Shown here one piece after another: positions 4,170 through 61,314 of a DNA stretch of 64,000 bases (positions are counted from its first letter, which is position 1; each line of letters starts with the position of its first letter). A program made the position numbers and the translations under genes. The stretch is taken from contig JAPETS010000048.1 in the NCBI GenBank assembly GCA_026023565.1, forward strand, positions 62,001-126,000, read 5' to 3'. Origin of the DNA: Cirrosporium novae-zelandiae (lineage: Eukaryota). The notes under the pieces are model-generated. The model was not told the origin of the DNA, searched no databases, and saw only the letters and a program-made list of their open reading frames with translations.

Positions 4170-7100
4170 TCACTCCGCCCCCCCTTCAACCGTTGCCGTG
4201 GGGAGATCGCTTCCAAGAGCATTGTCAGCACCTTGTCCAAAAACTACCAGATCGTTCTTGTCAGGTGCTGCCTCATCTGCTTTATCACTGTACTCGCTCC
4301 CACTTTCACCCTCCGAATCCTCTTCTTCCTCGTCAACCACTGCACCGTTGGGAACGCTCATATCTTCTGCTTCTTCATCAGACAGGTCACTACCATCAGC
4401 AGAACTACTCTCAGCCGCATAGCTGTCAGCAGCCGTGTCATCATAGCTCGTCCGCCGTTCTGTCGCTGTTTCACTACCAGTATCGCTCTCATCTTCTTCG
4501 CTGATCTCGTTCTCTTTGTCAACTATTGACGACATTGGCTGCCGCTCGGACCACGAGGGCTTTCTGCTTGGGATATTGGTTTTAACCGAATGGCTGCGTT
4601 TAAGATTGCCCAGCCCTTTGCTTCCAGCGGAGGAGATTATCGATGGCGTTGGAACTTTGTTTGCTCCAACTTCGCTGAGACTAAGGATTCTTCTCTCCTT
4701 TAGCCCAGCGGGCAAAGACATTCGAGCCGAATTAGGCTTTCTTCGTAGTGCCATACCAATCCCGCCACTGAGAGCACTGCCATGATCTTTCCCACCCTTA
4801 GCCTTTGTGCCTGTGCCCGCATTGCTTGATACCCTCTTGAGATTCATCGCTTTGGTGCTGTGGGGTCGACTGATCAACAGACTTCGGGAATGGTCGAGAA
4901 CGCCCTCCAAAATCCTTCTTTCCAGTTCCTCAGCACGATTTTCTACCAAAGAAACCTCCTCCTTTCGTATTCGGAGCGCAGTTTCCAAGGCACTAACATC
5001 AGCTCTGAGCAGGGCTTTCTGAGAGGCAAGCTCTTCCTTTTCTCGTTTCATAGCTTCTACAGCAGAAAGTAATGCATCCTTTTCAGCCTTCAAGTCTGCG
5101 ATTTCGGCCTCAACATGTTCTTTCTCCGCAACACGTCTCTCTAAAGCAACAGCAGCTTCCTGCGCTTCCTTCGCCATATTTTCTTGATCTTCGGCGATGA
5201 GCGTACGTTGAGAAGCGACGAATTGACCAATTTCAGTTGCGGTATTTTTAACTTGTTGGTGGATTTGGTCAAGCATTTGCATCGAGGTAAGCGCTTGCCC
5301 TGCGGCTGCGGCATGACCAAGGAGTTCATTGAGCTTCTCCTGGACAGGTGAATCGTCATATTTTTCTTGAAGACTTAACAGTTCGGCGAGCTTTGCTTGT
5401 ACAGCTGAATCATCATATTTTTCCTGGGAGCTGATTAAAGCTTGGAGTTCATTAAGTTTTTCTTGGACTGCTGAGTCGTCATACTTTTGGCTCAACAGTT
5501 CGGCAAGCTTCTGTTGAACCATTGAATCGTCGTACTTTTCTTGAGCACTAATCAACCCATGTAGTTCACCAAGCTTCTCCTGAATAGTTGAATCATCATA
5601 CTTTTCTTGAGCGGTTATTAATCCGTGTAGTTCATTGAGCTTCTCTTGAATGGCTGAATCGTCGTACTTTTCTTGAGCACTAACTAATCCGTGCAGTTCA
5701 CCAAGCTTCTCTTGAATAGTTGAGTCATCATACTTTTCTTGGCCGCTAATCAATCCGTGTAGTTCGGCAAGCTTGTCTTGTACGACTGAATCATCGTATT
5801 TTTCGCGGCTCAATAACTCAGTGAGCTTCTCTTGAACTGGTGAATCGTCGTACTTTTCTTGATTTAATAATTCACCAAGCTTTTCTTGAACTGGTGAATC
5901 ATCGTACTTTTCTTGGCCGCTGATCAATTCTCGCAGTTCATTGAGTTTCTCGTGGAGCACAGTGTCATCATATTTCTCAGGAGGTGGCATTATAGCCGGA
6001 GGAGGGATTTCGGGCATTGGGATGGCAGATGGTATACCATCTACAGTACACTTGATGACCTCGGTGCTAGTCTTGAGTTCTTCAGTGGTGGTTTTGATTT
6101 CCTCCGTAGCCTTTTGTGCTTGCTCGAACTGAGAGCTAATAAGATCGAGAACATTCTTGATCGAGTCTAGAATCTTGGGATGATTCTCTGCTACCTGGCC
6201 TTCTAAGCCACCAAGTGCAGTCAGGACCTTTGCGACCTCATCCCTTGTGAGCTGGTGATCACCCTTGGCATCGCTTCGTACCTCTTCAACCTTGTTATAG
6301 GTTTCATCGACACGTGTGAAGACAGTCTTGGACTCGTCGCCTAGCCTTTCAGCCGTCTCCGTCACTGTCGCTCCAAGAGTATCAACACATTCTTTGAGAT
6401 CCTTTGAGACTGCTTCGATAGACAGCGCGGCCCCCAGAGTCTTTTCACCATTGTCTTCGAGGGCTTTAATCTTCGCATCACTTGCTATCTGAGAATCATC
6501 ATATTTGGTCATGATTTCCTCAAAACGCTCGTCGATCTTGGCCTTGAGATCTGCAATTATAGTAGCCTGGACTTCATCATGTTTTGCAATTATAGAAGCC
6601 TGAACTTCATCATGTCTTGCAATTATAGAAGCCTGGACTTCATCATGTTTTGCGACTAGATTCGTGTGCTTCTCCTCGGTGTCAAGCTTGGTCGCATCGA
6701 CTTGACCATGGGCGCGTTCGAATTCTTTAGTCACCAGTTCCGATAGCTCTTTGAGGCCATCCGTCGTAGCATGCGTTGCCAAAACTGTAGTATGTGTCGC
6801 TAGGACCGCTTCGACGCCTTCTAGCATCTTCACTAGACCTTCTAGTCCATTTCCGACTCCATTTCCGATTTCTTTTCCACTGTCGTCTATAGCCTCTTTT
6901 AACTCGGTTCTGACAGCCTCGACAAATGATTTGACGTCTTCGATTTTTGTAGCCAGTCCACCGTGCTCAATCTTGCGGGCATCAAAGGCTTGAGCTACCA
7001 GGTCGTTCTCGGCTTCCACATTCTCTTTGAACTCTTTGACCAAGTTTTCGAGCGATTCGATATTTTCTTTAGTTGGAAGAGTATCGGGATCCGGTATCCT

Positions 7101-10100
7101 CATACCCTCGATCAAGACGTTCATTTCAGTACACAAAGTTCCGATTGCTTCAATATCGACCTTGGTGACGGCCTTTTCTTCGTCATCCTTCATCTGTTCG
7201 CGGACTTCCTCGACATTGGATTGGACATCCTTAATAAGTGCTTCCAAAACACCAAAGTCAGCCTTAGAAGCTCCATCAGCAGCCATCTGGGCGGAAAATT
7301 CATCAATCGCAGTCTTGGTATCCTTCAGAGTGTTCTCAAGAGTCTCCAATTGTTCTGCACGAGCCACAGTATCTGGCTGAGGGAAGACTATCTCATCAAC
7401 CTTCGCTTTAGTGTTACGAAGTAGAGTTTCAATAGCATCCGTATCGTCTTTGGTGGCAGTATTTACGTCCTCACGGCTAGCGAGGTCTCCAATAGCAGCT
7501 TGTACCTCTTTTACCGTGAGGTCGATTCCACCCAACGTTTCCTTTAGAGCTGCCTCGACGCTTGCAAGATCCCCTTTGGCGGCTAAATCGTCTTTGAGAG
7601 AGGCTTCTACGTTGGCAAGATCCCCCTTTGCAGCCAAGTCTTCTTTAAGAGAGGCCTCTATGTTTGAGAGATCATCTTTCCTTATGCTATCCTCGAAAGG
7701 TTCAGCTGAGGGGTGCTGTTGACTTGCGAGAGTATCAAGAGCTTCCACTTTGATCCGAAGTTGTGTGATTAGGACTTCAAGATTGGCAATATCATCTTTT
7801 GTTAGTGTCCCCCCAGGTGAGGCAAAATCCCCGGTTCGGCTGAGAGCAAGCTCTTCATTTTTGCCTTTCTCTTCCTTTAAGCTGTCGATCTCAGACTTTA
7901 AGTTTGCAAGACCTTCTTTAAGAGTTTCTAAGATGTCATAGTTGACAGTCATATCCGATGGCTTCGCTATTTTATCGATATCAGCTCGAAGATCCGCTAG
8001 GCCATCGCTAAAGGCGTCAAGAAGTTCGCTTGTATTTGAAAGAATGCTTCCTTCTTTGTGTGGGTTAGGTCCAAGGTCTAGTCTAATACTGTCAATGCCT
8101 TCCCTTAGAGCATCGAGAATTTCATCCTTATCAGCCGAAGATGAACCCCCTTGAAGAATATTTGTCGCGAGCGTCTCCCGAAGATGCTCGAACTCCTCTT
8201 TCATCGTCATAGCAAGGTTCGAGTTATCGTCACTAGGGCTCTTGGACTTTGCCTCTTCAAATCCATCACGAATGGCGTCAAGAATTTCGTCTTTGTCATT
8301 GGAGATATCCGTTCGCACGAGCGAGCTTCCAATGGTCTGACGGAGATGATCGAACTCCTTTTCGAGAGCATCAAGTATTTCGGTGGTATTCCCTGAACCC
8401 AAGTTGCGCGTGTTATTGATAATGGAGGCATCGATCTCATCTCTAAGAGACCCCAGACATCCTTTGACCGTGTCAATGATTTCATCTTTATCTCCAGAAT
8501 CATTACCGATGGTTTGCCGAAGAACATCGAATTCCTTCTCAAGCGCTACTAGAATTTCTGCAGTATTCCCTCCTGCCGGCTGGGGAACGGTAACAAGTGC
8601 CGTTGAAAATTCTTCTTTGATTGAGTCCAAGCCGGTTTTCAAGGCATCGATAATATCGTCTTTATCAGTGGAGCCCTCGCTGCGGACTAAGGAGGTGGCT
8701 AACGTCTGGCGCAAATGGTCGAACTCTCTCTCCAGGGTATCAAGAATTTCACTGTTATTGTCGGCAGAAGCAACATCATCCTGCCTTTTCGCAAGGGATG
8801 ACTCAAGATCCTCTCTTAAAGTGTCCAGTCCACCTTTTAGAGTATCGATGATTTCATCTCTACCAGTCACATCTGCTGTACGATCGACATAGGACTCAAT
8901 GTCGGTTCTCAGAACTTCCAGGCCGTCCTTGAGAGCATCCAGGACTTGTTCAGTATCTCTTCCACTCGCAGCTGAGTATTGCTTAAATTCAGACTTCATA
9001 TCCCCAATAAGGCTTTCCATAGTCGTCAGGACACGTTCTCCAACACCATCATTTGGTGAAGGTGCGCCTTCCAGTCCGGCCCTTACTGCATCCATGAGAT
9101 CCTCCTTGTTGAACTCGATCTCTTTGGAGAAAGACGGCTCAGTAGCTAGTGCCTCTTTCACCGCATCTTGGACGTCATCTTTGGTTAAATCAAGCTCCTT
9201 TGCTGGTGGTGGAGTTGGGAATTCAAAATTCTCGAGACATTCTCGAACGGCACTAAGGATTTCTTCTCGGGTGATACTAGCTTTGGTCTCGATAGGTGCT
9301 GGGACCGGGAAGTCCTGCAAGCCTGCTTTTACTGCTTCAAGAACTTCTTCATAGGTTGCACCCGAATCCTCTCTGGGTTGGTCCTGAGGTTGATATTCCT
9401 GTAGTCCTTCCTTCAGACACTGGAGCAGCTCATCCCTCTCAAGGCCAAAATGTTGGACCTCGATCTCAGGCTTATAGTTCTCCCAAGCCTCTCTTACTGC
9501 GTCAATGATATCTTCCCGCTCGACAGAAATGGCAGAGTCTTGAGGTAGGCCTCTAGGTAGAGGAACTTCCGCAAGGGCATTTTTGACGGCGTTAAAGATC
9601 TCTTGGCCATCAACTTCACTCCGAGAAATCATGGAAGAAGAAGAGGACCGCCGTTTTTCTCGCATGACATGTTGCATGTGTTCCTTGAGTTCAGCAAGGC
9701 TGGTTTGTATGATCTCTGCTATTTCTTCCGTATCAGGACCTCTGGTCTCATCACCAGAGCTACGTTGCTGGGATAATTCGGCCTCTTCTAGCTTTCGAGC
9801 GATCTCGCGTCCCATGCCTAAGACCTCGCCTCGCAGCTCCCGAACCAATGCTTTCACTTCGTTTGTAAGGCCGCCGCTCTCAGCAACACTATCTTTCATC
9901 CTCTTTAAAAGCTTCCATACGTCCTCAGTGACGAAATCGGAAGCTTTGGGGGCTGGCTCATTCCACATATCTCCGCCGTTGCTATGAAGATCTGGGAACG
10001 CTCGCGCAAGCGATCCAGACCGGCCATTAGAGTACTCTGAGTCGCTTATAGGAGGGATATTTCCTGTTCCGCCGCCGTTGTGAACAATGAGGGCGCGGCT

Positions 10101-11432
10101 TTCAGCATTTTCCTTGATAAACTGATGTATTTCTTCGAGTTTTTTCATGGTCGGCTTGTCTGCGTCCTCAGAAGCTTCCTTCCCAATAGCATCTTCTAGC
10201 GCTTTTATTACACGCTCCTGTCCCTCTTTGGTGCCCATTTCTCGAAGGATCTTTTCAAGAAGAGCAATTGATGCAGCGCCCTCCATGGGATATGGTGATG
10301 GAGAAGTCACCATATCTCGGTCAATACTCGGACCGAATCCACTTGGGCTTGGAATTCGGGGGAGGGTAAACCCCTTGGGAGCTCCAGCAGTCATACCTTT
10401 GTTTTCTAGGAGGGAGAATCCGGCCTGTTGATCTTTGACTGATTCAATACGGTTTGCCATATTTGATACTAGTTCTCGTAGACTCCGACGAATGTCTTCG
10501 TCACGGGAATTGGTTGCTTCTCGGAGACTCAATAGGTCGGTAGCGTTATCTTTACTCCTCCTGCTCAATTGCATCATTTCGCGTTGTAAGCTGGTGCAAA
10601 TATTTGTGAGGCTAAGGATCTGTGTGGAAATCGCATCAAAAGACTGAGGGTTTCGGATCAATGCTGATGGTGCGTTTAATGACATATCCTTGAGTGGATC
10701 ACCATCAAGGCTGGAAGGAACAGCCATGTTCTGCAAAGCACGCATGGTAGCGGAAGGAGGTGTGTTTTCACCAAGTATAGGTTTAGAGTAATGCCTGCTA
10801 GACGGCCGTCCCGACGGTATGTCTTGATCGCCGAAATCCCTTTCTGGAGGACTCCTTGGACCATTTCTACTTGGGCTGCATTCTGGTGATTTGTTTTCGA
10901 AATTTCTTAGATTATCGGGAGATCGAAGGAATCTTTCTGGTGACCGCTCTGGGGTCCTTGTTTCGATATATTTACTTAGGTCTCGAACAGTTCCAGTCTG
11001 CAGAGACTGCATGCGCTTATGCTGGGCGCTTCTGATTAAAGTCTTCTCGGGTGATTTAGGTGGAGGTGGATTTGTGATGTAGTTGCCTAAGCTGGCCGTT
11101 GCTTTCTCATGGAGTGCAGCGGCTGCGGCGGCGACGGTCGCAGATGTATTTGGTCTGGTAACAGTAGCAGGAGATCCAGGATTGAGCGGAAGCGGAGGTG
11201 GATTCCGATCCGGATCTGAGCTGTCCCACCTGTGTTTTCCAAATCTCGAGATTAGTTTCATTATCTACCAAGCGCATTGCTGTCGCACACCAGACGCAAC
11301 GGCATTTTTTGACGGAAATAAAGCGAAAACAAAGGAATTATCATACATTGGTAACCGTCCGTCAGAATAAGAATGCTGATGCTTTACTACCAGCTCTCGA
11401 TCGTGAGAGCTATCCCTTTCAACAGCGGGCAT
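4170..11432 (-). CDS. Large (~2380 aa) conserved fungal acidic coiled-coil protein with internal repeats; function unknown
   Basis: Exon 1 11432-11347 (MPAVERDSSHDRELVVKHQHSYSDGRLP-AT), intron 11346-11230 (GTATGA..CAG), exon 2 11229-4170 continuing M|WDSSDPDRNPPPLPLNP. A 7-kb uninterrupted ORF rich in heptad repeats. Confidence 0.85.
5318..5978 (-). repeat. Coding tandem repeat: 11 copies of EKYDDSxxQEKLxEL(xxL)xxQ (18-22 aa units)
   Basis: Counted in the translation; the DNA units TCATCRTAYTTTTC are visible on the + strand. Confidence 0.9.
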
Positions 11433-33060: not shown

Positions 33061-33591
33061 TTTGTGGGTAAAGAAGTACAAAAATTGTGAATCGATTGAA
33101 GCAGTTGATGTTTAGTAGAAGATCCCTTATGATTGAAAGGTTTATACGCATATTTGTATTAGGTATGTGATGAAAGTTTTGGATTTCTTTTATGATAATC
33201 ATGCCAAACCATCTATTCCGGGCACATATACTGCGCATTTACTATACAAGGCAACAGGGTAAGGCCTAGAATATGCTTATAGATAATTACTAACTATTTA
33301 TTGGAAACATACTCGCTTAATTGCAGTGTCTCGCTGAAGTTGGCACCCGATGCAGTCTGTCCTCAGTTACGCCCTTATCCTACGGCCGAGTATCTAGTCA
33401 TGCCTACGCACGTTCTGCAAGGCAATATCCAATTTGAGTTTTATTTAAACATATATATGAACTTATAGCCCAATCACGCGGTCTCCGCTAAGGTCTCCGC
33501 TTAAAACCCATGTAAGGCTGGGTTAGACTAATCTCCAAGGTGGTCAGATGGCAGCCGTATCACATTTCAGCCTTACTATTACAGCTTCCCT

Positions 33592-36500
33592 ATGAAGGGC
33601 CATAAAGACCTTAAAAGGCTTTTGAAACCCATCATCTCTTCACGTGTTTGTGTACTTAAGAGCGCTATTAACATCGTAGTTGCTGCTATAGACGGGCGAA
33701 TGAACAACAATTCCGCTGCTCTTATGCATTTTCCAGGGGACGATCCAAACGAGATGTGGTCAAGGACTCTGCAAGACAACCTCAATTCATTTAGGAAACT
33801 GCTTTCTAGCTGTGACGATGCCTATGATCTCTTAACAGCTTATGACGCAGCTAATGAATTAGCATTTGACCAATTTATCAAAAGAGCAAATCAAACCCAA
33901 TCTAAGATCAACCCGGAAGTAATTGGCCGTATTACAAATGTTTTCGGGACGCTCATCACAACCGCTCAAAGTATTGGAACAGCACAATACAATTTGAATC
34001 AACTATATGGAGTGTTGCAATGTAGCTATTCAGTCGGTTACACAATTGGCAAAGGGTCTAGGAGAGCTGCGGAGAAGTTAGAATCTATTGGCAGTTGGAC
34101 AACCAAGTTCCAAGCATCAGACTTCGAAATTGTGCCAGTGCACATAGTCTGGGACCATCTTGCCTGGTTTTCTTCTGAAGTGGTGCGCTTCTTCGGGAAA
34201 CTGGTTTCTTGCCGTACGGTACCCAGCGCTACCTCATGCTAGTAAATATTGACATTGCATAGGAACACCCGACGAAATTTTCTTTCTCAAACCACCTGAC
34301 CTTCAGTTACGACGTATCTGCGAATTACTGCAGGAAGAAGTCGCGAAGAGGCAGAATAAAGGTATTGGGCAAAAACAAGAGGAAGATTTACGCGAGAGAG
34401 CTAAAACGGAGGAGATAAACCGTCAGAACAAGGAAATTGAAAAAGTCGCCTTGTGACTGAAAAGACTCATGCCACAGACTAAAAATAATCGACATGCCGC
34501 ATTGTCGAATGCTCGACAAAGAGGTACAGGCAGATTGTATAGTGAGGAGCAACAAAAATGTGTTCTGGGCTGAGAGTGAACCCGGGGTTGGGAAGAGTAT
34601 CATTGCCTCCACTATAATTGACCAAGTTAAGGACTTGTTGGAACAGAATGCACCGCCCTCGGACATGACAAAAAACACCATCAAAAGCGATAGTGGCTCA
34701 GCATTGAAAATCAGTGCTATCGCATACATCTATTTTGCTTTCGACGAGCGTGATAACCAACGGCTAGAGTCTGTATATGCTCATTTACTACTTCAGCTAT
34801 ACCCTAAGGTCGACTCGTTAATGGAGCCATTGAGCAGACTTTACAAGGTTCAAGAGGGTTATAATGAACCGCCGTCTGCGGCGCAACTTCTAGGGATCCT
34901 GAAAACTCTCCCACCCACAGTGCTCTTTGTCTTCGATGCATTAGACGAAACGCTTCTAGTGATTCGTGATAATATTTGCTCTTGGGTTTCAACGATTGGG
35001 ATGTCCTCTTCCCGGCTACTTATATTTACTAGGACGGATGTGCAAAAACCAGAACTCTCATAGAAAGCCTTAAGAACTCTGAGGATTGAGGCTCGCGAGG
35101 ACGACATGGAGAGCTTCGTTAGAAGCAGGATCAAAGACAATAAAGGTGCTCAAAAACGAATTCAATCAACTCTTGGCGAGGATAGTGAAAGGTGGACAAC
35201 GGCACGAGTCAAAGAGATACTTAGTAGCTCTCAGCGGATGTAAGGAATTTTCTAGTATATTTTACGTCGTACTAATGTGAGACAGGTTCTTGCTTGTTGT
35301 TTTCCGAGTTCAGGATTTCTGCACACAACAGACAGTTACAGGCATGGAGCAAGCGGCGAAAAGGTCCGATTCCAACCCTGGCGAGTTCTATACACGTATA
35401 CTGGTGCAGATCAAATCGCAGCCATCTGAACAGGCAGAACTTGCTTTTAGAGTACTTGCGTGGCTTACCTTTACAAAAATTTCGATAGATGCTAAGGAAC
35501 TTGCCGAAGCGTTAGCAATAAAACCCGGGATTTACAACATCGATCCGAAGGATACCGCTCTTGTGGAAGATATGGAAAGAAATTGTCGAGGTCTAGTTGT
35601 TCTTGATATGCAAGATGGGTATGAATGCCTCCGACTTGCTCATCAGACAATACAAGAATATTTCTCAGCCCTACATGAATTTCAAAAATTTAAAGAAAAT
35701 ATTTGCTGTTCGCTTTTTACGTATCTTACATACGTGTCCAGATCAAGTATTAGGGTCGAAGATGAAGACGAAGGTGAAGGTGAAGACGAAGATGAAGATG
35801 ATTCGGCAGTGAATGCTCTGACCGAGGAAATGTTAAGTAGTTATTCGGATGAAATCGATGATGACATGACCCACAGCCTTACCCTCTCTAGCAATAGCTA
35901 GGAAGATCCAACAACATTTAATGAATTAGCCCGAATCGATCCCTTAAATCACGATTTCGATTTTGGTAGTCCGGACAGCGAGGAGGTATTCGGGGAAACT
36001 GCAAACACCTCAGCACCCCGAGAACGAATAGTTGCATGGGACGATGAAAATGCTGAAGATTCCGAAGGAGGAAAGCTTGCCTCGTATTCCGAGTCAGGTT
36101 TTTCTCACCAGGTCGACCAGGTTCGGCATATGTCATACTATTATTTCAATGAAGAATATCTTTTTGATTATGAAGATGAGTATCGTGGAGTTGCTGTGCG
36201 TACTATATGGCCGCGAAAGTTGCTGAAAATATTTCCACAAACCTTGCTACAATGGACCTTGATCCGGGAGCGGCCGTTATTATTTTACACTGGCGAATAT
36301 TCACTTGTACATCTGCAAGATATCAGCTATGCATCCCTACTGGCCGATACTACCACCCACACCAATAATAGCTCCATTACAAGGGAGGTAGAGCGTTTTG
36401 TTAAAGCAATGTTTCCGTTACGTCGACAAACCACATTATCGACTGAGACGAATAGTTCAGAACTAGGTCGATATGGCATTACAAGGACTCATCTTGCAGT

Positions 36501-39500
36501 ATTTATTGGGTTGCGGTCGGTTTTAATGCAAGTTCTAAATCATCCTGATGTGAGGATCAATTCGACCGATAGATTCGGTAGAACTGCACTTCTATGGGCA
36601 CTATATATGAATAAAGATGATCTTGCCGATTATCTAATCACCAGAGGTGCTGATGTAACCGTTAAAGACCGCGATGAGGATATGGCTATTTACTATACGT
36701 CCAAATCTACGAAAAGAGATGTACTAAGATAGATTGTCGAGAAAACGTCCCGGGAAAATCTCGATGGGAGAGCTTTGCAGTTTGCGATATAAAAAACGAA
36801 CATGGATCTTCTTGAGATACTACTTGAGCGCGGAGTCTCGCCGAACTATGGGGTTGATGGTATCAGCAACTCAGCACTACATGATGCTGCGTTGCTTGCT
36901 CAGGGAGCGATGTTGGGTCCCCTGCTCTCTTCAGGGGCTGAAATATCCGCACGAGATGGGAAAGAGAGGACAGTTCTACATATTTGCTGTCAGTTTGGTT
37001 TGTTTGAATCTGGAAAAATGTTACTAAGACAGAATGTGGATCCTAACCAGGTGGACAATAACATGCTCACTCCACTACATTATGTAGCCGGCGTTGAAAT
37101 CGGTGACAAGGAAGAAGATTGTTTGAGCTTGACAAAGCGCCTCATCAAAAAGAGGGCTATCTGCTTGGTACAAGATCGTCAAGGCCGAACCCCATTGATG
37201 CAGTTCTTGACTCGGAATAAACAGATGAGCAAAGCAAAAAAGATATCTATGCTTAAACTAATTTGCCCTAGTTCTAGCGCTGTGCTCTGTCAAAATAAAG
37301 ACAACGCGAATGCCTTACGTCTCGCTACTCAGTGGCATGATTATTCAGTTATGTCATACCTCCTAGAACTTATACATGGTGCTGGCATGGACACTCATGA
37401 TGAGGTTGGCTGCTTTCCATTGTATTTGGCATTTAACCAACGTGACAAAAAGCTCATGAAGCTTGTGCTCGAACTCAACCCCCCACCTCTGAAAAATTTA
37501 GTATACGAAGGTCAGTCGATATTGGACCAAGCTATCATTCACGGAAACAAAGCTATTGTACAAAAAACTTTGGAGCTTGCACCATCATTGATCAATCCAA
37601 CAGACGATATGGACCATGCGCCATTGATTACAGCAGCAAATCATACCAAGGTTGAAATATTCAGGATCTTGCTTGAACAAGGTTGTAATGTATTTTTTGC
37701 TTGTGCAGATAGAAGTGTGGTCTTCCATCAAGTTTGTAAAATGGGGAATGTTGAAATGGCTCAACTTCTAATAAGGTATAAAGCTTGGCTGCACCCTTAC
37801 CCGGAAAAAGGTACAGAGCCAATTCGTGATATAGTCAATGAGACTGTCCTGCATAGTGGGGCGCAGAGTTTGTCACCAACTCTAATTCAGATCCTTCTCC
37901 AGCTACCAGGTCTCAATGTCAATGACACGAACGCTGTAGGGGAGACAGCTCGCATCTTTGTGTCCGGCATGGCACTTCAGCGGGCCTGAAACTCCTTCAG
38001 GCTGGAGCCCTAGTGAATGAATTAAATAACGCAGGAAAGTCTGCCCTAGACTTCGCCCTCAAAAGGGGAGATCCTGCTATACTGGAGGTCTTGTTTGGGT
38101 CTCGCCCTATTCCAGGTCTCTTGTGGCCCGAAATGTCCCCAGAAATCGTCAGATGGGTTAAGTATCCGTGGTTTCGTTTATTAGAGCCTTTCCAAGGTGA
38201 TGCCATGTCTCAACCAAAGAGCAAATTCAAGCGCGATCCAGGCTGGCGAGTTCACAAGGCTCGCACAACGAAGTACGGCCGATTTTCAGAGAACTCTCCT
38301 GACGTCCCCTACCTGAACTTTGCGGTTCCTGGTTCTGGCACATCACGAGTACGCCGAATTATATTTAAGGCCATTTCACATGATCAAGGCAAGTTCTCCA
38401 TGACAATTTGATTTTCTTGTCTAATTAATTAGCAGCTTTCAGCTGGGAAGAGGAGACGTGGGGACAAACATTTCAGCACTCATGGACATGGTTTGAAGCT
38501 GGTGTAGCTGGAATGCAGAGCATGAGGACTGCGAGACCTTTGGAATTACCACGCCGAACCATCCATCGCAATGTTCACGCATCTGGCAGATATTATCAAC
38601 GCATTACCATTTGGGATTATAGGGACCCAGAGCCTGGATTGCGGTCTTGGCTAGCTTCCATTAACCCGGGGGATATCGTAAGCATTTATGTAAAAGCATT
38701 GTATGGTGCTTGGGAGAATCATGTAAAAGAGGTGGAGATACTCCTATACTACGAAGAGACCCCGTCTTTGATCACGCCCAGGTCACCCTTGAGGAGTAAG
38801 GATTCCCCTGGCTTTTTATTACCCAGCCAGCGTCATTCGCCCAAAATCATTTCTTACATTCAGACACATCATACGGATTCAGGATCCCCAATCTCCCTCC
38901 GCCCACTGGCCGATAAAGGCACTAGTGTTACCACGTGATCATAGCAGCAGTACACCTCAATGAAAACCCTGAAGAAATAACGTTGAATGACGATCCTCCT
39001 AGTTCAAAAAAGTATAACACTCTCCGGGATGACATTATTTACCTCCAAAATGCAAAGATCAAAGTCCTCGCAATGCTCGGTGGCGCAGCCCGTGGCTCTT
39101 TCAAAAGACTCGACGGCGACCCGGAGAGTTTCATCAAATTCTACTACCCCCTTCGCAGATTTCTCAAAATCCATAAATTCGACGGCATTGATCTCGATAT
39201 TGAGGAGCCGATGCCACTAGATGGAGTCACCCGTCTCATTGATCAGCTCCGTCTCGACTTTGGACCTGTATTTCTAATCACACTTGCGCCCGTAGCCACG
39301 GCTTTGCACAACTCAAACAGCCTATCCGGATTCGACTACGAGCTATTAGAGCTATGACTTGGACACGAAATCGCGTGGTAAAACACCCAATTCTACTGTG
39401 GATGGAGTCGATCGCAACCAGAGTCGTACGCAAACATCGCAAGACGTGGCTGGCCACTGCACAAAGTCATCTTGGGACGATCGACCAACCCGGAAACACA

Positions 39501-39945
39501 TGGGTATACGTCCATCGACGACCTTGATCAAATACTAGCGAAAATCGCAAATGATATTCCCGATAGCCATCTAAACTTTGGCGGGGTGATGGGCTGGGAG
39601 TATTTCAACTCCATGCCCGGTGGAACAGACCGTCCCTGGGAATGGGCCTCATCGGTCTCGTCTTTAATTAAGAAGCACTTTGATCAGAATACAAACCCGC
39701 CAAGCCCAAACAAGAACGATAACGTTACGGTAGGTCTGATGGCATCAGAGGTGTCCAAGATCGCGCATGCTCCCGTGGATGATACCGTCAATGTTGAAAT
39801 GAAGGTTATTGATCATTCTGGAATTCATAATGTGGGAAGGAGAGATGATAATGATGATGAACAAGGTCGGAATAATGACGAAAATGGTGGAAATTTTGGA
39901 AATGATGATGTTGTCTCTATGGAAATGAAAATTGTGAAGAAATGA
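33592..39945 (+). pseudogene. NLR-like pseudogene: helical N-terminal domain - NACHT - winged helix - acidic linker - ankyrin repeats - HDQG/SWTWFE domain - GH18 domain
   Basis: Walker A EPGVGKS, Walker B LFVFDALDE, M|FLLV across intron ~35240-35285, RLAHQTIQEYF, ankyrin motifs (GRTALLWA, LTPLHY, GRTPL, GKSALD), GH18 FDGIDLDIEE and GGVMGWEY. In-frame stops at 34454, 35061, 35899, 36730, 36790, 39355 and 39379; frameshifts near 34540, 37950 and 38930. Confidence 0.85.
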
Positions 39946-40794
39946 CCAAAAGAAAAGGGGAGGGGGTGAGGGAGGGAATGCCCTTGACTGCTCTTAATAG
40001 CGCATTACTACAGGCTCCGCTACTATTTATTGGGAGGAGGAGGCCAACAAACTCTTTTTATCCATAGGAGAGTCCTCCCTCTTTCCTCCAAAATTTAGCA
40101 AAAAAGAATTCTATTCCTTCGTTAAGTCCCATGAGCAAAAAGTTTTTTTACCAAAACAAGAAACTTTCCGCCCATCATTTTATTTAATTACTTATGCACA
40201 AGTTACTCCATTCTACTACATTCTATATTCTATACCCTTTAATTAAACTAAAAAGGAACGTGTGTGGGATAATTATCTATTACTTATTTACCTACCTACT
40301 TACTTACTTGAGCGGATGCCACCACCCAGTGTTAGTACAGTACAGTACAGTACAGTATTATATCTATATATATATATATAATCTAGCTATGCCGTAAAAA
40401 CCACAATCACAATCACAACTACCTATAAAAAAATAACCCCCCCTCCCCCCTCCCCCCTCACTTCACCCCACCTTACACCATTACATACATATCGTATGTT
40501 TCCGCCCCTAACATCCTTACACCTTGCTTTAATTAAAATCCACAATCCCTAAATTCCCAAAAGCAAAATAATAGATAACTAGATTTTTGGGTTTTTTAGT
40601 TCGTTAAGAAAGGGGAAAGAAGAAGAAACCAAAATAACCAAACAACTAAACAACGAAACATACGTAGCTGTGATTTGGTGTTGGGGGAGATATATGTAAT
40701 TATGTATCTAGACTATAGCGTATCACTTAGCTGTACTATGACGATTATATATATAGGATTTTGTAAAAGAGGATGGATAGATAAATCTAGTGTG

Positions 40795-40831
40795 TATGTA
40801 TGTATGTATGTATGTATGTATGTATGTATGT
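40795..40831. repeat. (TATG)n microsatellite in a low-complexity intergenic region
   Basis: Directly visible; (CAGTA)n and (TA)n are nearby at ~40335-40380. Confidence 0.9.
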
Positions 40832-40993
40832 ATATAGTAGCTATATATTTTCCCAAGCATCATTCAACGAATATACAATCCCTTCTTTCTATCCACCACT
40901 TACTACTACCGCCAACCCCTCCCCCACACCCCACACCAATTTCCCCAGAAATTATATCCATCCCTCTTCCTTCCCTCCCTTCCCACAACTCCC

Positions 40994-43565
40994 TCAAACC
41001 CTATCCTTATCAACCCAACTTTTCAAATTAATCGTATTCAACGTTTCCGAACCATCGAGTCTAGATAGCACGCCCGCAAAAGCGCGCATGTATTCGTTTG
41101 CTCGACGGGCTTCTTTGCTGTCGGGGCCGTAGGGACAGGCTAGGAGGGTTGCGGCTACGTCGCGGATTTTGTGGGTCTGTGAGGAAAGAGGGGGGGGGGA
41201 TGTTGAGTTGGGTGCTTTTTTTATATATTTTTGTTTTTGGGGGATGGGGGGACTGGAGGGGTAGGGTGGGGTGAGTGAGACTTACTAGGTGATTCCCATT
41301 CGGCTCGAGATAGACATGCGGGGCATCGTGAAGGATATGGAGGAGCTGGCGACAGATATCTTCGCGTTCGTTCCAGAGGGCTTGAATTTTTTCCTCCGAT
41401 TGAGATGCGCTGCTTGTGGTGGTGATGGCGGTGGAAGGGGTATTGGTCAAAGGCGCGCCGTCCGGATCGACGGCGCTTTCTAACGTGTTGACTTGCTCAA
41501 AGAGGACGCTTTGGAGCCAGAGATGCGTGACGTGGATGTTGATGCGCATGGATTCGAATTGTGCTTCTAGAACTTTTGGGCTTGGGATGGTGGCACGGGC
41601 GCACATGAGATCTAGGGAGGATATGCCGACATCTATGTCGTAGCAGGAGGTGCAGTGGGGATCGCCACAGCCAGTACCATGGCAGTTGATACCGCCGCGA
41701 CGAACACTACGACGAGAACCACGACTAACACTAGTATTGATACCTGCATTAGTATCTGCGCCAACATCAGCACCAATGTCAGTATTAATACTAGCACTGA
41801 TATCGGCGTCGATGTCGTAGCAACTGGTACAATCCGGATCACCGCAGCCAACACCACGACAATTAATGCCACCACGACGAACATCACGACGACCACTACG
41901 ACTAATACCAGCACCAACAACATCAGTACCAACACCATCATCAATACCGGCATCAATACCAACACTGCTGCTCTCGCCGTTCCTTGTCACTTTCCATTGG
42001 CGGAAGGGCTCGGGAATCTGGTCGATGACGTATTTGACATTGTGAAGACGTTCTTTAAGGTCTACAAGGCGGTGATTGTGCTGGGATAGGCCCGTGAAGC
42101 TACAATATTCCTCAACTCCAGCAAGGGACTCTCTCTCGGGAGAGGGGTAAGCCGAGGAGATGCTTGCCCAGAAGACGCGAGAGTTGATGTTGAATCCGAT
42201 AGTTAGGGAGAGCTGCGTCTCGGGTTGAGGGAGAATTCGGCCCTCGTGAATGTATTCATCGTCCACTTCGATTGGCATCAATTCATGAAGCTTAATGGTC
42301 TGCAGGATCGTTGCGTCGAGAAAATTGAGCTTTTCTTTCCTAAGGTTTTGTAGCTGGGCGTGTCTAGTTGAAGAATGTCGAATTAGACGATTGGTATAAA
42401 TTGGAGGATACCATTTTTAGAGAAAACTTACACATAGCCATAGAACGTCAACCAGAACGCCTTTTTACGGAGTTGAACTTCAATGCAATTCAGCCCATCA
42501 TAACTGGAGATATGATGCAAATCCAATAGACGTGCAAGCTGCATAGCCTCTACCTCTAGCATACGTGACCGGTTGTGCTGACCGATCTGAAAACATGCCA
42601 AGTACAGCAAAAAGGACACACTCCATTTGTTGAAGCTAATTTCGTCAAAATAGCTAGGACTACGCGCATGCACGATCATGTCACAGCAGAAGTGCACCAT
42701 TGCAGTTCGTGTTTGAAAACGCAGGGGGGTGCTGCAGGTTCGATATTCCTGGAATTTCCGGGGGATCGTTGCCACCAGCGCAGCGCATAGAGCTATGATT
42801 AAGCTCAAGAAATCAGCATCATACGAATCCCGATATCGTGTTAGATCTTGCCGAAACGACGGGCGGTGAACTACGGGAACCATTGGGTACAAAAGTTCAA
42901 GATAATCGTTGAGCATGCGGTCTATCAGTGGTCGAGGGCACAGTCGATCACTAGAATAGCGTGGCGTAAAACGATCCGAGTGCGAATCCAGGGTCGACCC
43001 GGATGGGTAGCTAAAGTGCTGACTCTCTGGCGTTCCAGCGCTCATTGGCTCCGTGGACATAGCATGCTGGCCAGGACTATTATTGTTTGCTGCACGTTTC
43101 ATGGCTTTGTTTAGGGTTGGGTATCTTGAAACTTCATCGTTCCGCAATATTGGGTGAAGCGAAATATAATCTCGCAGACGGGGTAAAGCTGAAGTCTGAT
43201 CATGAGATGATGAGGAATGCCCATGGTTATCGGCCAGCGTTGCCGCGGACCTGGGAAACGACGTCAGTGGTTGATTTATATTAGGATGAAGATATCGTTA
43301 CATACCGCTTCCGGGGACCACGGGCTTTCACTGGTCGATCAAACGTGCATCGCAGGTTTAGAGTAGCACATCTTTGACATGGAGATGGTAGTGGCGATAA
43401 TGGTGTACCTGGCGATTGCGGAGAAACCGGGGAATGACCCCTGGAGACACTTCTGCTAAGCGGCATACATCGCGTTTTTCTTGCACGACAAGCATCACAT
43501 GCTCGTCGAGCAGGACTGAGTGGCGATACATGGCTAGAACGACGATTCAGTCTGGGTGAGTACAT
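40994..43565 (-). CDS. Zn(II)2Cys6 transcription factor with a fungal middle-homology region
   Basis: Exons 43565-43306, 43250-42432, 42363-41286 and 41176-40994. Zinc cluster ACDACRARKTRC..PCQRCATLNLRC; MHR motifs YPMVPVVHRPSF and EVQLRKKAFW; ends KSWVDKDRV*. Confidence 0.9.
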
Positions 43566-59692: not shown

Positions 59693-61314
59693 TCATGTGG
59701 CCTTTCTAGATAACCTGAAAGCATTTCTCAAGCTGCCAGTCCTGCTCAGCGACAATGCTTGCAGATTAAGTCTAATAGCCGCTGTTGATGAATGCGTTGA
59801 TGCTTTGGAAGGAACAGAGCCTTTCGATGAGGTCGAGGCTTCCGGAGATTCAGGGACCTTTGAAGGTGTCGAAGATACCATGGATTTATAGCCATCGTCA
59901 TTAGGCTTAAACAACAACGATTCCATAGACGGATCTGCAATGAAGCTTTTTATATCAAAAGGTATGAAAGTAGGAAGCCGAGGAGTACTCTCTTGAATTG
60001 ACAGAAGTGTACTCTTCATCTTCCTTAATGCAGCTCGGATGACGATTCGGGAGCTGAATGAGTATCCCTCATAATCAGGAACAGCCCACTGAGAATATAG
60101 CCTACCGTGGGAACTTTGAAGGTAATATACCCCTTGATATCTCATAAACATTTCACAGAGGAAGCAAGAAGCTTTACTGGTTCCAATGACTCGAGGACGG
60201 AGGTCGGGGGGATGAAGTTCCAATTCTGCAAAAAGCTCCATCTCAGCATGTACCAGTCGGTCTTTGCCACGAAGACGTTCACTTTGAGGAAGATGGAGCT
60301 GAAGGCGGACACGCGAAAACTGATGTCGTGGTAATAGTTTGAGACCTTGGCATAGATCGATACACACCCCCAAATATCGTGATAACTTCTCTAGTTCTCT
60401 GACAGATCTTTCTGGCACAGATTCATCCATATCACCCTTTTCTATAAGTGCCTCGCTAAGTGTTCTGCGTCCCATACACGAAGTCGCGGCGTGCGCTTGC
60501 CTCAAGAGCTGATCTAAAAACATTCTCTCTTCCTCAAGATCTTTAGGACTCCTTAACTTCACAAAGGAATTATATATATCTAGCGTATGGGATTCGAGGT
60601 GAAAGTATGTATCGCAATGTTCCTCCTCGTGCTGCTTGCAGGTCTTTCTTACATATTCCCAAAGTCTAGAAATGAAAGGCTGACGTCGTAATGATGGATG
60701 CAGCGGCCCGTTTCCTTTCGCCGTTCCCAATCTCCATAGTATTCGCTCGTAATGAAGATCGATCACAAGAGGAAAGATCTGGTTTGCGCATTGTAGAGGC
60801 TCCGAATCTACCAAAACACATCAACTCCACTGCCCACCAAGGATTGGTAGCTTTATCCAGTTTAGGTACCTGGGCGCAGCGCTATTTCCAATTGTGCTAT
60901 AATCTTCCGCATGGTTTCCTCTACATGCTCTTTGAACCTCGCATTTGAAGCCGCCTTCACAACCAATGTCTTCTCGGAGCTCCTCTCTTCAATCGCAACA
61001 GCAGCCATATTTTCGACGCCGGCATGCGTTGATACAGCTAATAAGAAAGCGAGGTCCGTAGCTAGCCGTCTCTCCAAAGAAAAGCTTAGAGTTCTTTCTC
61101 CGCTATAATCATGGTTCCCTCTTCGCTTCCATTCCCAATGATGAAAGGTCTTCTCGGGCGCAAGGTGGCGGTTTTGTCTCTCCAGGGAATCGACAACCTT
61201 GTAAAAAGAGCGATCGTCATCGACACCGCGCCAGATGGAGGTTTGTGCTGGTAATCCACAACAGGAGCACTCTCTTCTCAAAGGGGCCTGTAATGGTGCC
61301 ATGGGAGATAGCAT
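59693..61314 (-). CDS. OTT_1508-like nucleic acid/nucleotide deaminase (CDA superfamily)
   Basis: Exon 1 61314-60870, intron 60869-60808 (GTACCT..TAG), exon 2 60807-59693; 519 aa. Zinc-deaminase signature VHAEMEL..IGTSKASCFLC..SHGRLYSQW; N-terminal RTLS..E..LA.DLAFL..AAVAIEE. Confidence 0.8.

Follow-up and report, generated by a model that had tools for sequence, protein, structure and literature searches.

A decayed NLR-type gene ending in an unnamed domain and a GH18 domain in Cirrosporium novae-zelandiae

The locus and its broken reading frame

We analysed a 64,000-nucleotide stretch of contig JAPETS010000048.1 from the fungus Cirrosporium novae-zelandiae, hereafter the window, in which positions 33592-39945 of the forward strand (+) hold a single collinear gene of the NOD-like receptor (NLR) type. 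Read from its fragments in order, the gene encodes a helical N-terminus, a NACHT domain, a winged helix, an acidic linker, ankyrin repeats, a domain with HDQG and SWTWFE motifs that we call X, a glycoside hydrolase family 18 (GH18) domain and a short tail. The region from 32 to 42 kb was translated from stop to stop, Pfam was run on eleven plus-strand fragments and codons were checked by script; all parts of the gene given below lie on the plus strand. The gene was compared with P0309, an uninterrupted 2043-aa protein from another fungus that has NPHP3_N/NACHT at residues 269-478, ankyrin repeats and GH18 at residues 1696-1909. The alignment of P0309 (residues 23-2038) to window positions 33736-39855 consists of seven pieces in the same order, with identities of 38-50%, and its breaks coincide exactly with three introns and three frameshifts. 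This collinearity indicates that the order of the parts in the window is not chance.

Seven internal stops were found by codon check, at 34454 (TGA), 35061 (TAG), 35899 (TAG), 36730 (TAG), 36790 (TAA), 39355 (TGA) and 39379 (TAA). Of these, the TGA at 34454 stands opposite W of P0309, the TGA at 39355 opposite R and the TAA at 39379 opposite Y. The first frameshift lies at 34550-34553, where about 23 nt are absent relative to P0309, while the other two are single-base losses, one at ~37950 within an ankyrin repeat (GETA[L]HL) and one at 38932 at the first GH18 strand (between VT and HVII). The window copy lacks an intact reading frame, with seven in-frame stops and three frameshifts in about 6.2 kb, and it is therefore a pseudogene of a fungal NLR of the STAND (signal transduction ATPase with numerous domains)/NACHT type, dead in Cirrosporium novae-zelandiae. 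An earlier note on this DNA had counted seven in-frame stops, three frameshifts and three introns, and sequence reading together with the codon script returned exactly these numbers; the motifs it named, GVGKS, DALDE and an intact DxxDxDxE, could all be read directly in the sequence. The span that it gave for the gene also stood, apart from its probable start: the ATG at 33700 is likelier than the upstream in-frame ATG at 33592, since it is where two relatives, P0305 and P0140, start in the alignment.

Exon 1 (33592-34213) is an open frame for the helical N-terminal domain, with 41% identity to P0309 residues 23-182, and P0305 and P0140 align to it at their N-termini. The first matches of this domain in the Atlas were Goodbye clusters at 0.90, which is under the recognition bar of the tool. 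Intron 1 (34214-34262; 49 nt, GTACGG..CATAG) falls at a point where P0309 is continuous. Exon 2 (34263-35239) was assigned to a coiled linker and the NACHT/NPHP3_N NTPase by Pfam and by alignment to P0309 residues 185-538, and it carries the stop at 34454, the frameshift or deletion at 34550-34553 and the stop at 35061. NPHP3_N scored 64.7 bits (cut-off 24.8) in the fragment 34461-35063, whereas the Pfam NACHT model reached 17.2 bits in the broken window copy (cut-off 26.7) compared to 36.5 bits in P0309. Walker A (PGVGKS) lies at 34581-34598 and Walker B (DALDE) at 34935-34949, with FVFDALDE ending at 34949, and the P-loop NTPase signature of fungal NACHT NLRs (Walker A GxxxxGK[ST], Walker B hhhhD[AG]LDE) is thus present. 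P0309 reads through intron 2 (35240-35285; 46 nt, GTAAGG..TACTAAT..CAG) as spliced, and three relatives called as open reading frames (ORFs), P0005, P0269 and P0272, all start just past this point.

The winged-helix domain after NACHT (35286-35760) is ~50% identical to the N-terminus of P0005. It matched GPIID_WHD weakly, at 19.2 bits in the fragment 35281-35901 and under the cut-off of 27; the same model was above its cut-off in P0269 (45.7 bits) and P0272 (42.9 bits). By sequence reading and alignment, an acidic, poorly conserved linker follows (35761-36480) and contains the stop at 35899. The ankyrin-repeat array (36481-38110), defined by Pfam and by alignment to P0005 and P0309, carries the stops at 36730 and 36790 and the one-base loss at ~37950. 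Ankyrin families were found in the fragments 35902-36732, 36793-37989 and 37926-38411, with Ank_2 at 112.6 bits over six stretches in the second of these, so that the superstructure-forming repeats expected of fungal NLRs are present as ankyrins. No Pfam match was obtained in the fragments 33532-34242, 38429-38938 and 39382-39945.

Domain X (38111-38760; HDQG, SWTWFE, NVHA, GD and W.N.V), a predicted jelly-roll, was delimited by its HMMER family and an AlphaFold2 (AF2) model. Intron 3 (38393-38442; 50 nt, GT..AG), placed by the codon script, lies inside X directly past HDQG. The ENGase-like (endo-beta-N-acetylglucosaminidase-like) GH18 catalytic domain (38837-39680) was recognised by Pfam, by PDB matches and by 50% identity to P0005, and it is broken by the one-base loss at 38932 and the stops at 39355 and 39379. 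Alignment to relatives defines a C-terminal tail (39681-39945) with strand-like V-x-V/M-E-M-K motifs, which ends at the natural stop at 39943-39945. The tail is common to the window, P0309 and P0004 only, and its motif was absent from the fused or X-linked relatives checked (P0154, P0305, P0002, P0085, P0269 and P0272). Its motifs (VVSVELK, VVTVEMK, VVSMEMK/R) occur in three copies in P0004 (364-414), in two clear copies in the window (39690-39942) and once in P0309 (residue 2015). One idea is that the tail may be a short beta-repeat signalling or aggregation motif.

A word-based search with an unassigned piece of the gene returned a single protein, P0001 (953 aa, 99% identical), which is listed at NCBI as 'MAG: hypothetical protein M1834_007149 [Cirrosporium novae-zelandiae]', MAG standing for metagenome-assembled genome; the species belongs to the Xylobotryomycetes. 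P0001 spans 36802-39942 (+) and begins at the internal ATG at 36802. It skips both one-base frameshifts through invented introns and gets past the two stops in GH18 by running in the wrong frame for 19 residues, losing conserved GH18 segments. P0001 is a patched, artefactual model of a pseudogene. The public gene model of the locus should carry a pseudogene flag, and the value of the window copy is as a pointer to a family.

Intact relatives and the two C-terminal domains

P0005 is a single 1515-codon ORF on a 28-kb Logan contig and runs from winged helix through acidic linker, ankyrins, X and GH18 to the tail, collinear with the window. P0309 belongs to the 90% cluster of P0005, to which it adds the N-terminal domain and NPHP3_N/NACHT. 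The two are otherwise identical apart from an 18-aa in-frame insert (54 nt) in P0005, at residues about 1019-1036, past HDQG and at the position of intron 3 in the window; the same kind of insert is seen in the C-terminal part of P0306. P0005 was therefore called from unspliced DNA, since it starts right after intron 2 and keeps intron 3, and for the intron-free P0309 the simplest reading is an origin from spliced transcripts or mRNA. The intron directly past HDQG is conserved in distant members (P0005, P0306 and the window), and in some of them it is short and in frame, so that ORF callers translate it as extra residues.

A second full-length relative, P0305, is a 1955-aa NCBI model from a MAG of Loekoesia (Lecanoromycetes, a lichen fungus). 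Its collinearity with the window extends from NACHT to GH18, which is divergent in P0305. The junction of X and GH18 was also found in P0004 (with its near-copy P0310), in P0154 and in the partial P0085 from Glonium stellatum. By P0309, the NLR-X-GH18 architecture exists uninterrupted in at least one other fungus, in addition to the full-length model in the lichen fungus. The earlier note had proposed a single gene of NLR type in which two further domains follow the ankyrins. This is borne out by P0309 and P0305, which carry NACHT, ankyrins, X and GH18 in one protein; P0309 is an intact, end-to-end collinear relative of the kind that the note had suggested looking for. We hold the structural statements on the NLR chassis and its C-terminal X-GH18 part to be highly probable.

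When residues 416-623 of P0001 were used in an exhaustive HMMER search, X was recovered from 433 representative proteins at E<=1e-3, 92 of them at E<=1e-10; those members that have names belong to Ascomycota as well as Basidiomycota. The family consensus, R..F...SHDQGWS..GTY..SWTWFEA..RR.IQ.NVHA..H..W...GD..V...A...GW.N.V, matches the motif string HDQG, SWTWFE, RN.HA, GD and WENHV by which the domain had been noticed; the domain itself was thus upheld, with its start now placed at about 38110, in the fragment before intron 3. None of the 58 aligned short X members had a relevant Pfam family (58/58), and the newer precomputed Pfam lists of X-bearing proteins likewise give no family for X. PF26639, precomputed for the X and HET (heterokaryon incompatibility) protein P0307, is probably not X; it is absent from the lists of P0001, P0005, P0122, P0305, P0306 and P0308. 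When the 58 long X proteins were run against Pfam, an N-terminal X preceded HET in 20, 16 had NPHP3_N/NACHT and ankyrins with X at the extreme C-terminus, 17 had ankyrins and then X (three also with a winged helix and one with an F-box-like domain), one had X and then GH18, and four had no family. Canonical N-terminal effector families (MLKL_N/PigL_N, SesA, NACHT_N and PigL_N) were present in 4 of the 16 NLR-X proteins. P0191 from Schizophyllum commune (1336 aa) is an NLR-ankyrin-X protein with a DOT1 methyltransferase-like domain past X (1143-1278). X seems to be a site where further domains become attached.

The AF2 model of X, built from a 58-row alignment, is all-beta with a predicted local distance difference test score (pLDDT) of 83.4 and a predicted template modelling score (pTM) of 0.79, a confident jelly-roll of the kind of model that the earlier note had called for. 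Its fold matches by Foldseek and VIA-align include the C-domain of Chlamydia PGP3 (Z 8.8), the TNF-like lectin PLTL (Z 8.7) and a porphyran carbohydrate-binding module (Z 7.9), and further matches are TNF/C1q and viral capsids. By this predicted fold, X is a jelly-roll family that has no Pfam match in the copy used and no name. In the model, strand ends and loops carry the near-invariant residues (query positions G93, S107, W110, F111, N137, A140, A179 and W184), which would form a loop-borne binding site.

Two other identities for X were considered. As a candidate C-type lectin, the X profile matched three snake-venom C-type lectin-like chains (1wt9_A best, E 1.7e-4), and the match runs through the pattern GWS..Y..S.TW..AE. 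It was taken as motif resemblance only, since the predicted fold of X is an all-beta jelly-roll. X may also be an F-box-associated (FBA) sugar-binding domain, which its motif resembles: one Atlas row for X is an F-box cluster at 0.89, and FBA is not among the listed fold matches of X.

Glyco_hydro_18 scored 47.4 bits (cut-off 29.6) in the fragment 38926-39357, and the C-terminal half of the domain is 50% identical to P0005. The catalytic motif DGIDLDIE lies at 39181-39204 with DxxDxDxE intact; DxxDxDxE is also kept in P0005, P0154, P0269 and P0272, while P0305 has DGFEFDLE (D-to-E). The N-terminal 140 residues of the GH18 domain matched PDB 2y8v at 1.7e-46 and Endo T (PDB 4ac1) at 4.4e-32, with true chitinases at 1e-6 or worse; 2y8v is labelled as an A. 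fumigatus 'class III chitinase, putative'. By similarity, the domain is placed in the ENGase-like subgroup B-V branch of GH18, in agreement with the ENGase-like GH18 with intact catalytic motif that had been noticed before. Its closest GH18 relatives are small enzymes of ~290-370 aa, many of them with a UBA domain. When the GH18 fragment was searched among longer proteins, nearly all of the 120 matches listed (of 534) were GH18 proteins of 255-420 aa, many with UBA, and ankyrin repeats occurred in 2 of these 120, P0001 and P0005. A cytosolic GH18 ENGase is described as an active deglycosylating enzyme linked to endoplasmic reticulum-associated degradation (ERAD) in Neurospora in the part of a preprint that was available (bioRxiv 10.64898/2026.03.25.714127).

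The X-GH18 part of P0005, searched among long proteins, gave 44 matches, including P0269 (936 aa) and P0272 (984 aa). These two have winged helix, ankyrins and GH18 without X in between, and they start at the same post-NACHT point as P0005. In a FastTree phylogeny of 157 GH18 domains, the window grouped with P0005 and P0004 (support 97), and P0269 and P0272 grouped with P0077 (support 96). An IQ-TREE 'quick' tree of 42 rows (7 fused or X-linked, 9 near neighbours and 26 random, with P0305, P0302 and P0112 excluded as long or odd) recovered the same two clades, separated by a 94/94 split. A tree constrained to unite the seven fused rows was worse by 47 log-likelihood units and was rejected by the approximately unbiased (AU) test (p-AU 0.00028). 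A single origin being rejected, there are separate fusion lineages, one with X and one without; the GH18 phylogeny proposed in the earlier note thus yields two clades of fused domains. On the sequences compared, GH18 of the ENGase-like cytosolic clade was shown to have been joined to NLR C-termini at least twice. About 30 relatives from Aspergillus and Onygenales join a PhoD-like phosphatase to GH18 of the same type, either as a real fusion or as merged neighbours, and P0089 (kinase, NUP, GH18 and UBA) looks merged.

A proposed role for the ankyrin-X-GH18 end

The best explanation joins a decayed NLR-X-GH18 gene in the window to a recognition role for the ankyrin-X-GH18 end in living relatives. 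In these relatives, that end would be the recognition side of the receptor and would keep the NACHT switch off. X would be a module of lectin-like or ligand-binding type, in use in HET cell-death proteins as well, and GH18 would be a copy of a housekeeping cytosolic deglycosylating enzyme. As a trigger, X-GH18 could bind glycans containing N-acetylglucosamine (GlcNAc) that appear in the cytosol. Another possible trigger is that X-GH18 acts as bait for antagonist molecules that target the housekeeping ENGase. Either engagement would release NACHT oligomerisation, and the N-terminal helical domain would then execute the response. Taken jointly, the structural statements and the sensor/decoy mechanism make an explanation that we regard as rather probable. 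The mechanism by itself, drawn by analogy, is tentative, and we put its chance a little short of even.

Several points weigh against this explanation. The sensor/decoy step would rest on analogy for its ligand, its enzymatic activity and its cell-death output, and the kept catalytic residues fit an enzymatic role equally well as bait. The N-terminal domain matches no Pfam family at E<=0.01, and its AF2 model from a 3-row alignment has a pLDDT of 37.2, too low for use. The jelly-roll matches of X are generic (the best Z of 8.8 lies in the tool's 'common' range), so that its lectin function is putative. The putative mRNA origin of P0309 is read from its missing introns, and the group used in the AU test was named after the FastTree result had been seen. 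Lastly, none of the 79 metagenome GH18 loci found with P0269 as the query had ankyrins, X or NACHT upstream (0/79), and stand-alone GH18 is thus the rule and fusion rare; the contig of P0269 itself was not among the 79 (no row near full identity). On those loci, tblastn with winged helix-ankyrin, X and NACHT queries gave no match at E<=1e-6, and at E<=1e-2 it gave three weak matches, none of them upstream on the GH18 strand.

The GH18 domain could instead be a C-terminal enzymatic output, in which NACHT oligomerisation would concentrate or activate an ENGase or chitinase that cuts invader or self glycans while X binds the substrate. The catalytic motif is kept in five of the six fused or X-linked GH18s checked, X directly precedes GH18 in six sequences, and the fold matches of X include carbohydrate-binding modules and TNF-like lectins, all of which would suit such an enzyme. 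An output role is harder to reconcile with the distribution of the parts: X mostly occurs without GH18, ending NLRs or preceding HET domains, the NLR-X relatives already have canonical N-terminal effectors (4/16), and the second lineage has GH18 without X. We consider this reading improbable.

Quite improbable, in our judgement, is that the protein is a regulator of proteostasis, a STAND ATPase scaffold that would control a paralogue of the ERAD deglycosylating enzyme and have no role in non-self recognition. X is common to HET proteins, the fused domains are typical parts of fungal NLRs, and the gene is dispensable, having decayed in the Cirrosporium novae-zelandiae genome, as is typical of NLR repertoires with their fast turnover. 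This reading does draw on the small, often UBA-linked enzymes that are closest to the GH18 domain, and on the tie of the cytosolic ENGase to ERAD reported in the available part of the preprint (bioRxiv 10.64898/2026.03.25.714127).

It is very improbable that the gene is intact in the organism and that its stops and frameshifts are sequencing or assembly errors, even though the source is labelled a MAG. The ten lesions lie within 6.2 kb while neighbouring genes are open, with frames of 2364, 614, 448 and 766 codons. These neighbours include MAD, Exo5 and Naf1-like proteins, and the only interruptions in a GH3 gene, a sugar transporter gene and an Alg9-like gene are ordinary introns. Positions 33500-40000 are also covered in one piece by a Logan contig from run X1, with 0 differences, 0 gaps and a word depth of 361; this contig probably comes from the same sample and is then a second assembly rather than a second specimen. 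The lesions also include substitutions to all three stop codons, beyond homopolymer indels alone. Repeat-induced point mutation (RIP) was rejected as the source of the stops, with TpA/ApT at 0.70 and (CpA+TpG)/(ApC+GpT) at 1.30, equal to the flanking genes. We concluded that the lesions are the ordinary decay of a dispensable gene. Just downstream of the pseudogene, positions 40000-41000 are AT-rich (GC 0.37, TpA/ApT 1.19) with ATGT/CATA microsatellite runs; nowhere else in the neighbourhood is the dinucleotide index RIP-like.

That the fusion is a gene-model or assembly artefact, with the NLR and X-GH18 really separate neighbours, is largely refuted already and has next to no probability: the public model P0001 of this locus is artefactual and several long GH18 'fusions' in the databases look like merged neighbours (P0089, for example, with kinase, NUP and GH18), but open fragments in the window bridge ankyrins and X (37926-38411) and X and GH18 (38429-38938), no ATG-led independent start lies between X and GH18 in the window, P0005 runs as one ORF from winged helix to GH18 and P0309 is uninterrupted from N-terminus to GH18. 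A separate GH18 gene with its own start, which the earlier note had raised as an alternative, was accordingly not found.

Three other frames in the window drew attention, all on the minus strand. An uninterrupted 2364-codon frame at 4173-11264 (-) matched no Pfam family even at E<=0.05. A 451-codon frame at 41064-42416 (-) has an internally duplicated Cys-rich unit (..RRGGINC.G.GCGDP.CTSCYDID..) and by itself matches no Pfam family. A Fungal_trans transcription-factor fragment sits immediately upstream of it at 42431-43297 (-), and the two are probably one gene. An open frame at 59696-60820 (-) contains an OTT_1508-like deaminase domain (E 3.3e-17).

Comparison with known systems

To our knowledge, what fungal NLRs recognise is almost wholly unknown. 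With a recognition role for the ankyrin-X-GH18 end, the sensing end would combine the conserved X with an enzyme whose substrates belong to a defined class, GlcNAc-containing glycans, and each of these two parts could be purified and tested for ligands. X is a link between three kinds of proteins, NLRs, HET proteins and an F-box-like protein, through which fungi decide on self, non-self or protein fate. The wider claim, that fungi possess intracellular receptors watching cytosolic N-glycans or the ERAD deglycosylation machinery, is rather unlikely. If it were true, X would be a new lectin-like recognition domain of NLRs, HET cell-death and F-box-like proteins, and capture of the cytosolic ENGase, as a bait or sensor integrated into NLRs, would have happened two or more times. 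Cytosolic exposure of GlcNAc glycans or an attack on ENGase would then trigger NLR-driven cell death, which would be a fungal counterpart of animal glycan-danger sensing and of plant NLRs with integrated domains (NLR-IDs).

The nearest published comparison is with the non-canonical NLRs of Sordariales. In the parts of that survey available, 185 non-canonical C-terminal domain types are given for 378 NLRs, SPRY always follows the ankyrins, zinc fingers and PKinase are also listed, and a CHK-2-like PKinase is proposed as a putative integrated decoy (PMC12258605). The window gene shares with these the NACHT, the ankyrins and an extra non-repeat C-terminal domain, and it would share a bait copied from a housekeeping protein; it differs in that its extra domains are an unnamed jelly-roll, X, and a GH18 enzyme. 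A search of 12 of the 17 supplementary files of that survey gave 0 occurrences of Glyco_hydro_18, and one each of Glyco_hydro_16, 47 and 61 (PMC12258605). Chitinases go without mention in the available part of a survey of NLR N-terminal domains (PMC9815663). The literature searched, including those 12 of 17 files, held no paper on a fungal NLR fused to GH18 or chitinase and no X motifs. The premise of the earlier note that fungal NLRs end with the repeat sensor was too simple, X being a frequent C-terminal add-on (16 of the 58 long X proteins have NACHT/NPHP3_N). C-terminal add-ons of fungal NLRs are already in print, and what is new here is the integrated enzyme, its recurrence and the unnamed X family. 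Through the locus, NLR-X-GH18 receptors come to light as a real family, one that was not found in the literature searched.

Two groups of proteins resemble single parts of the gene. The fungal GH18 ENGases (the secreted Endo T 4ac1 and the cytosolic gh18-10/Eng18B type), and with them the putative class III chitinase 2y8v, are alike in sequence and in DxxDxDxE. They are small single-domain or UBA-linked proteins, whereas here GH18 is the C-terminal part of a ~2000-aa protein behind X, an internal domain and hence without a signal peptide. HET proteins share X, which is N-terminal and followed by HET in 20 of the 58 long X proteins; in contrast, the window gene has no HET domain and carries X at the opposite end.

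Plant NLR-IDs carry integrated decoys such as WRKY or HMA domains. Compared to them, the repeats here are ankyrins and not LRR (leucine-rich repeats), and no paired helper NLR lies inside the 64-kb window, where no second NACHT, X or HET match was found head-to-head or elsewhere and the neighbours are housekeeping genes. We know of no effector that targets ENGase. The likeness to plant NLR-IDs, a concept cited in the available part of the Sordariales survey (PMC12258605), lies in a domain of a host protein fused to an NLR, in recurrent independent integration and in the existence of stand-alone paralogues. Here, a non-canonical GH18 is fused to NLR parts in P0309, P0305, P0005, P0269 and P0272 while stand-alone relatives dominate. 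Such repeated capture of one housekeeping enzyme is the kind of pattern that gave the first hint of integrated decoys in plants.

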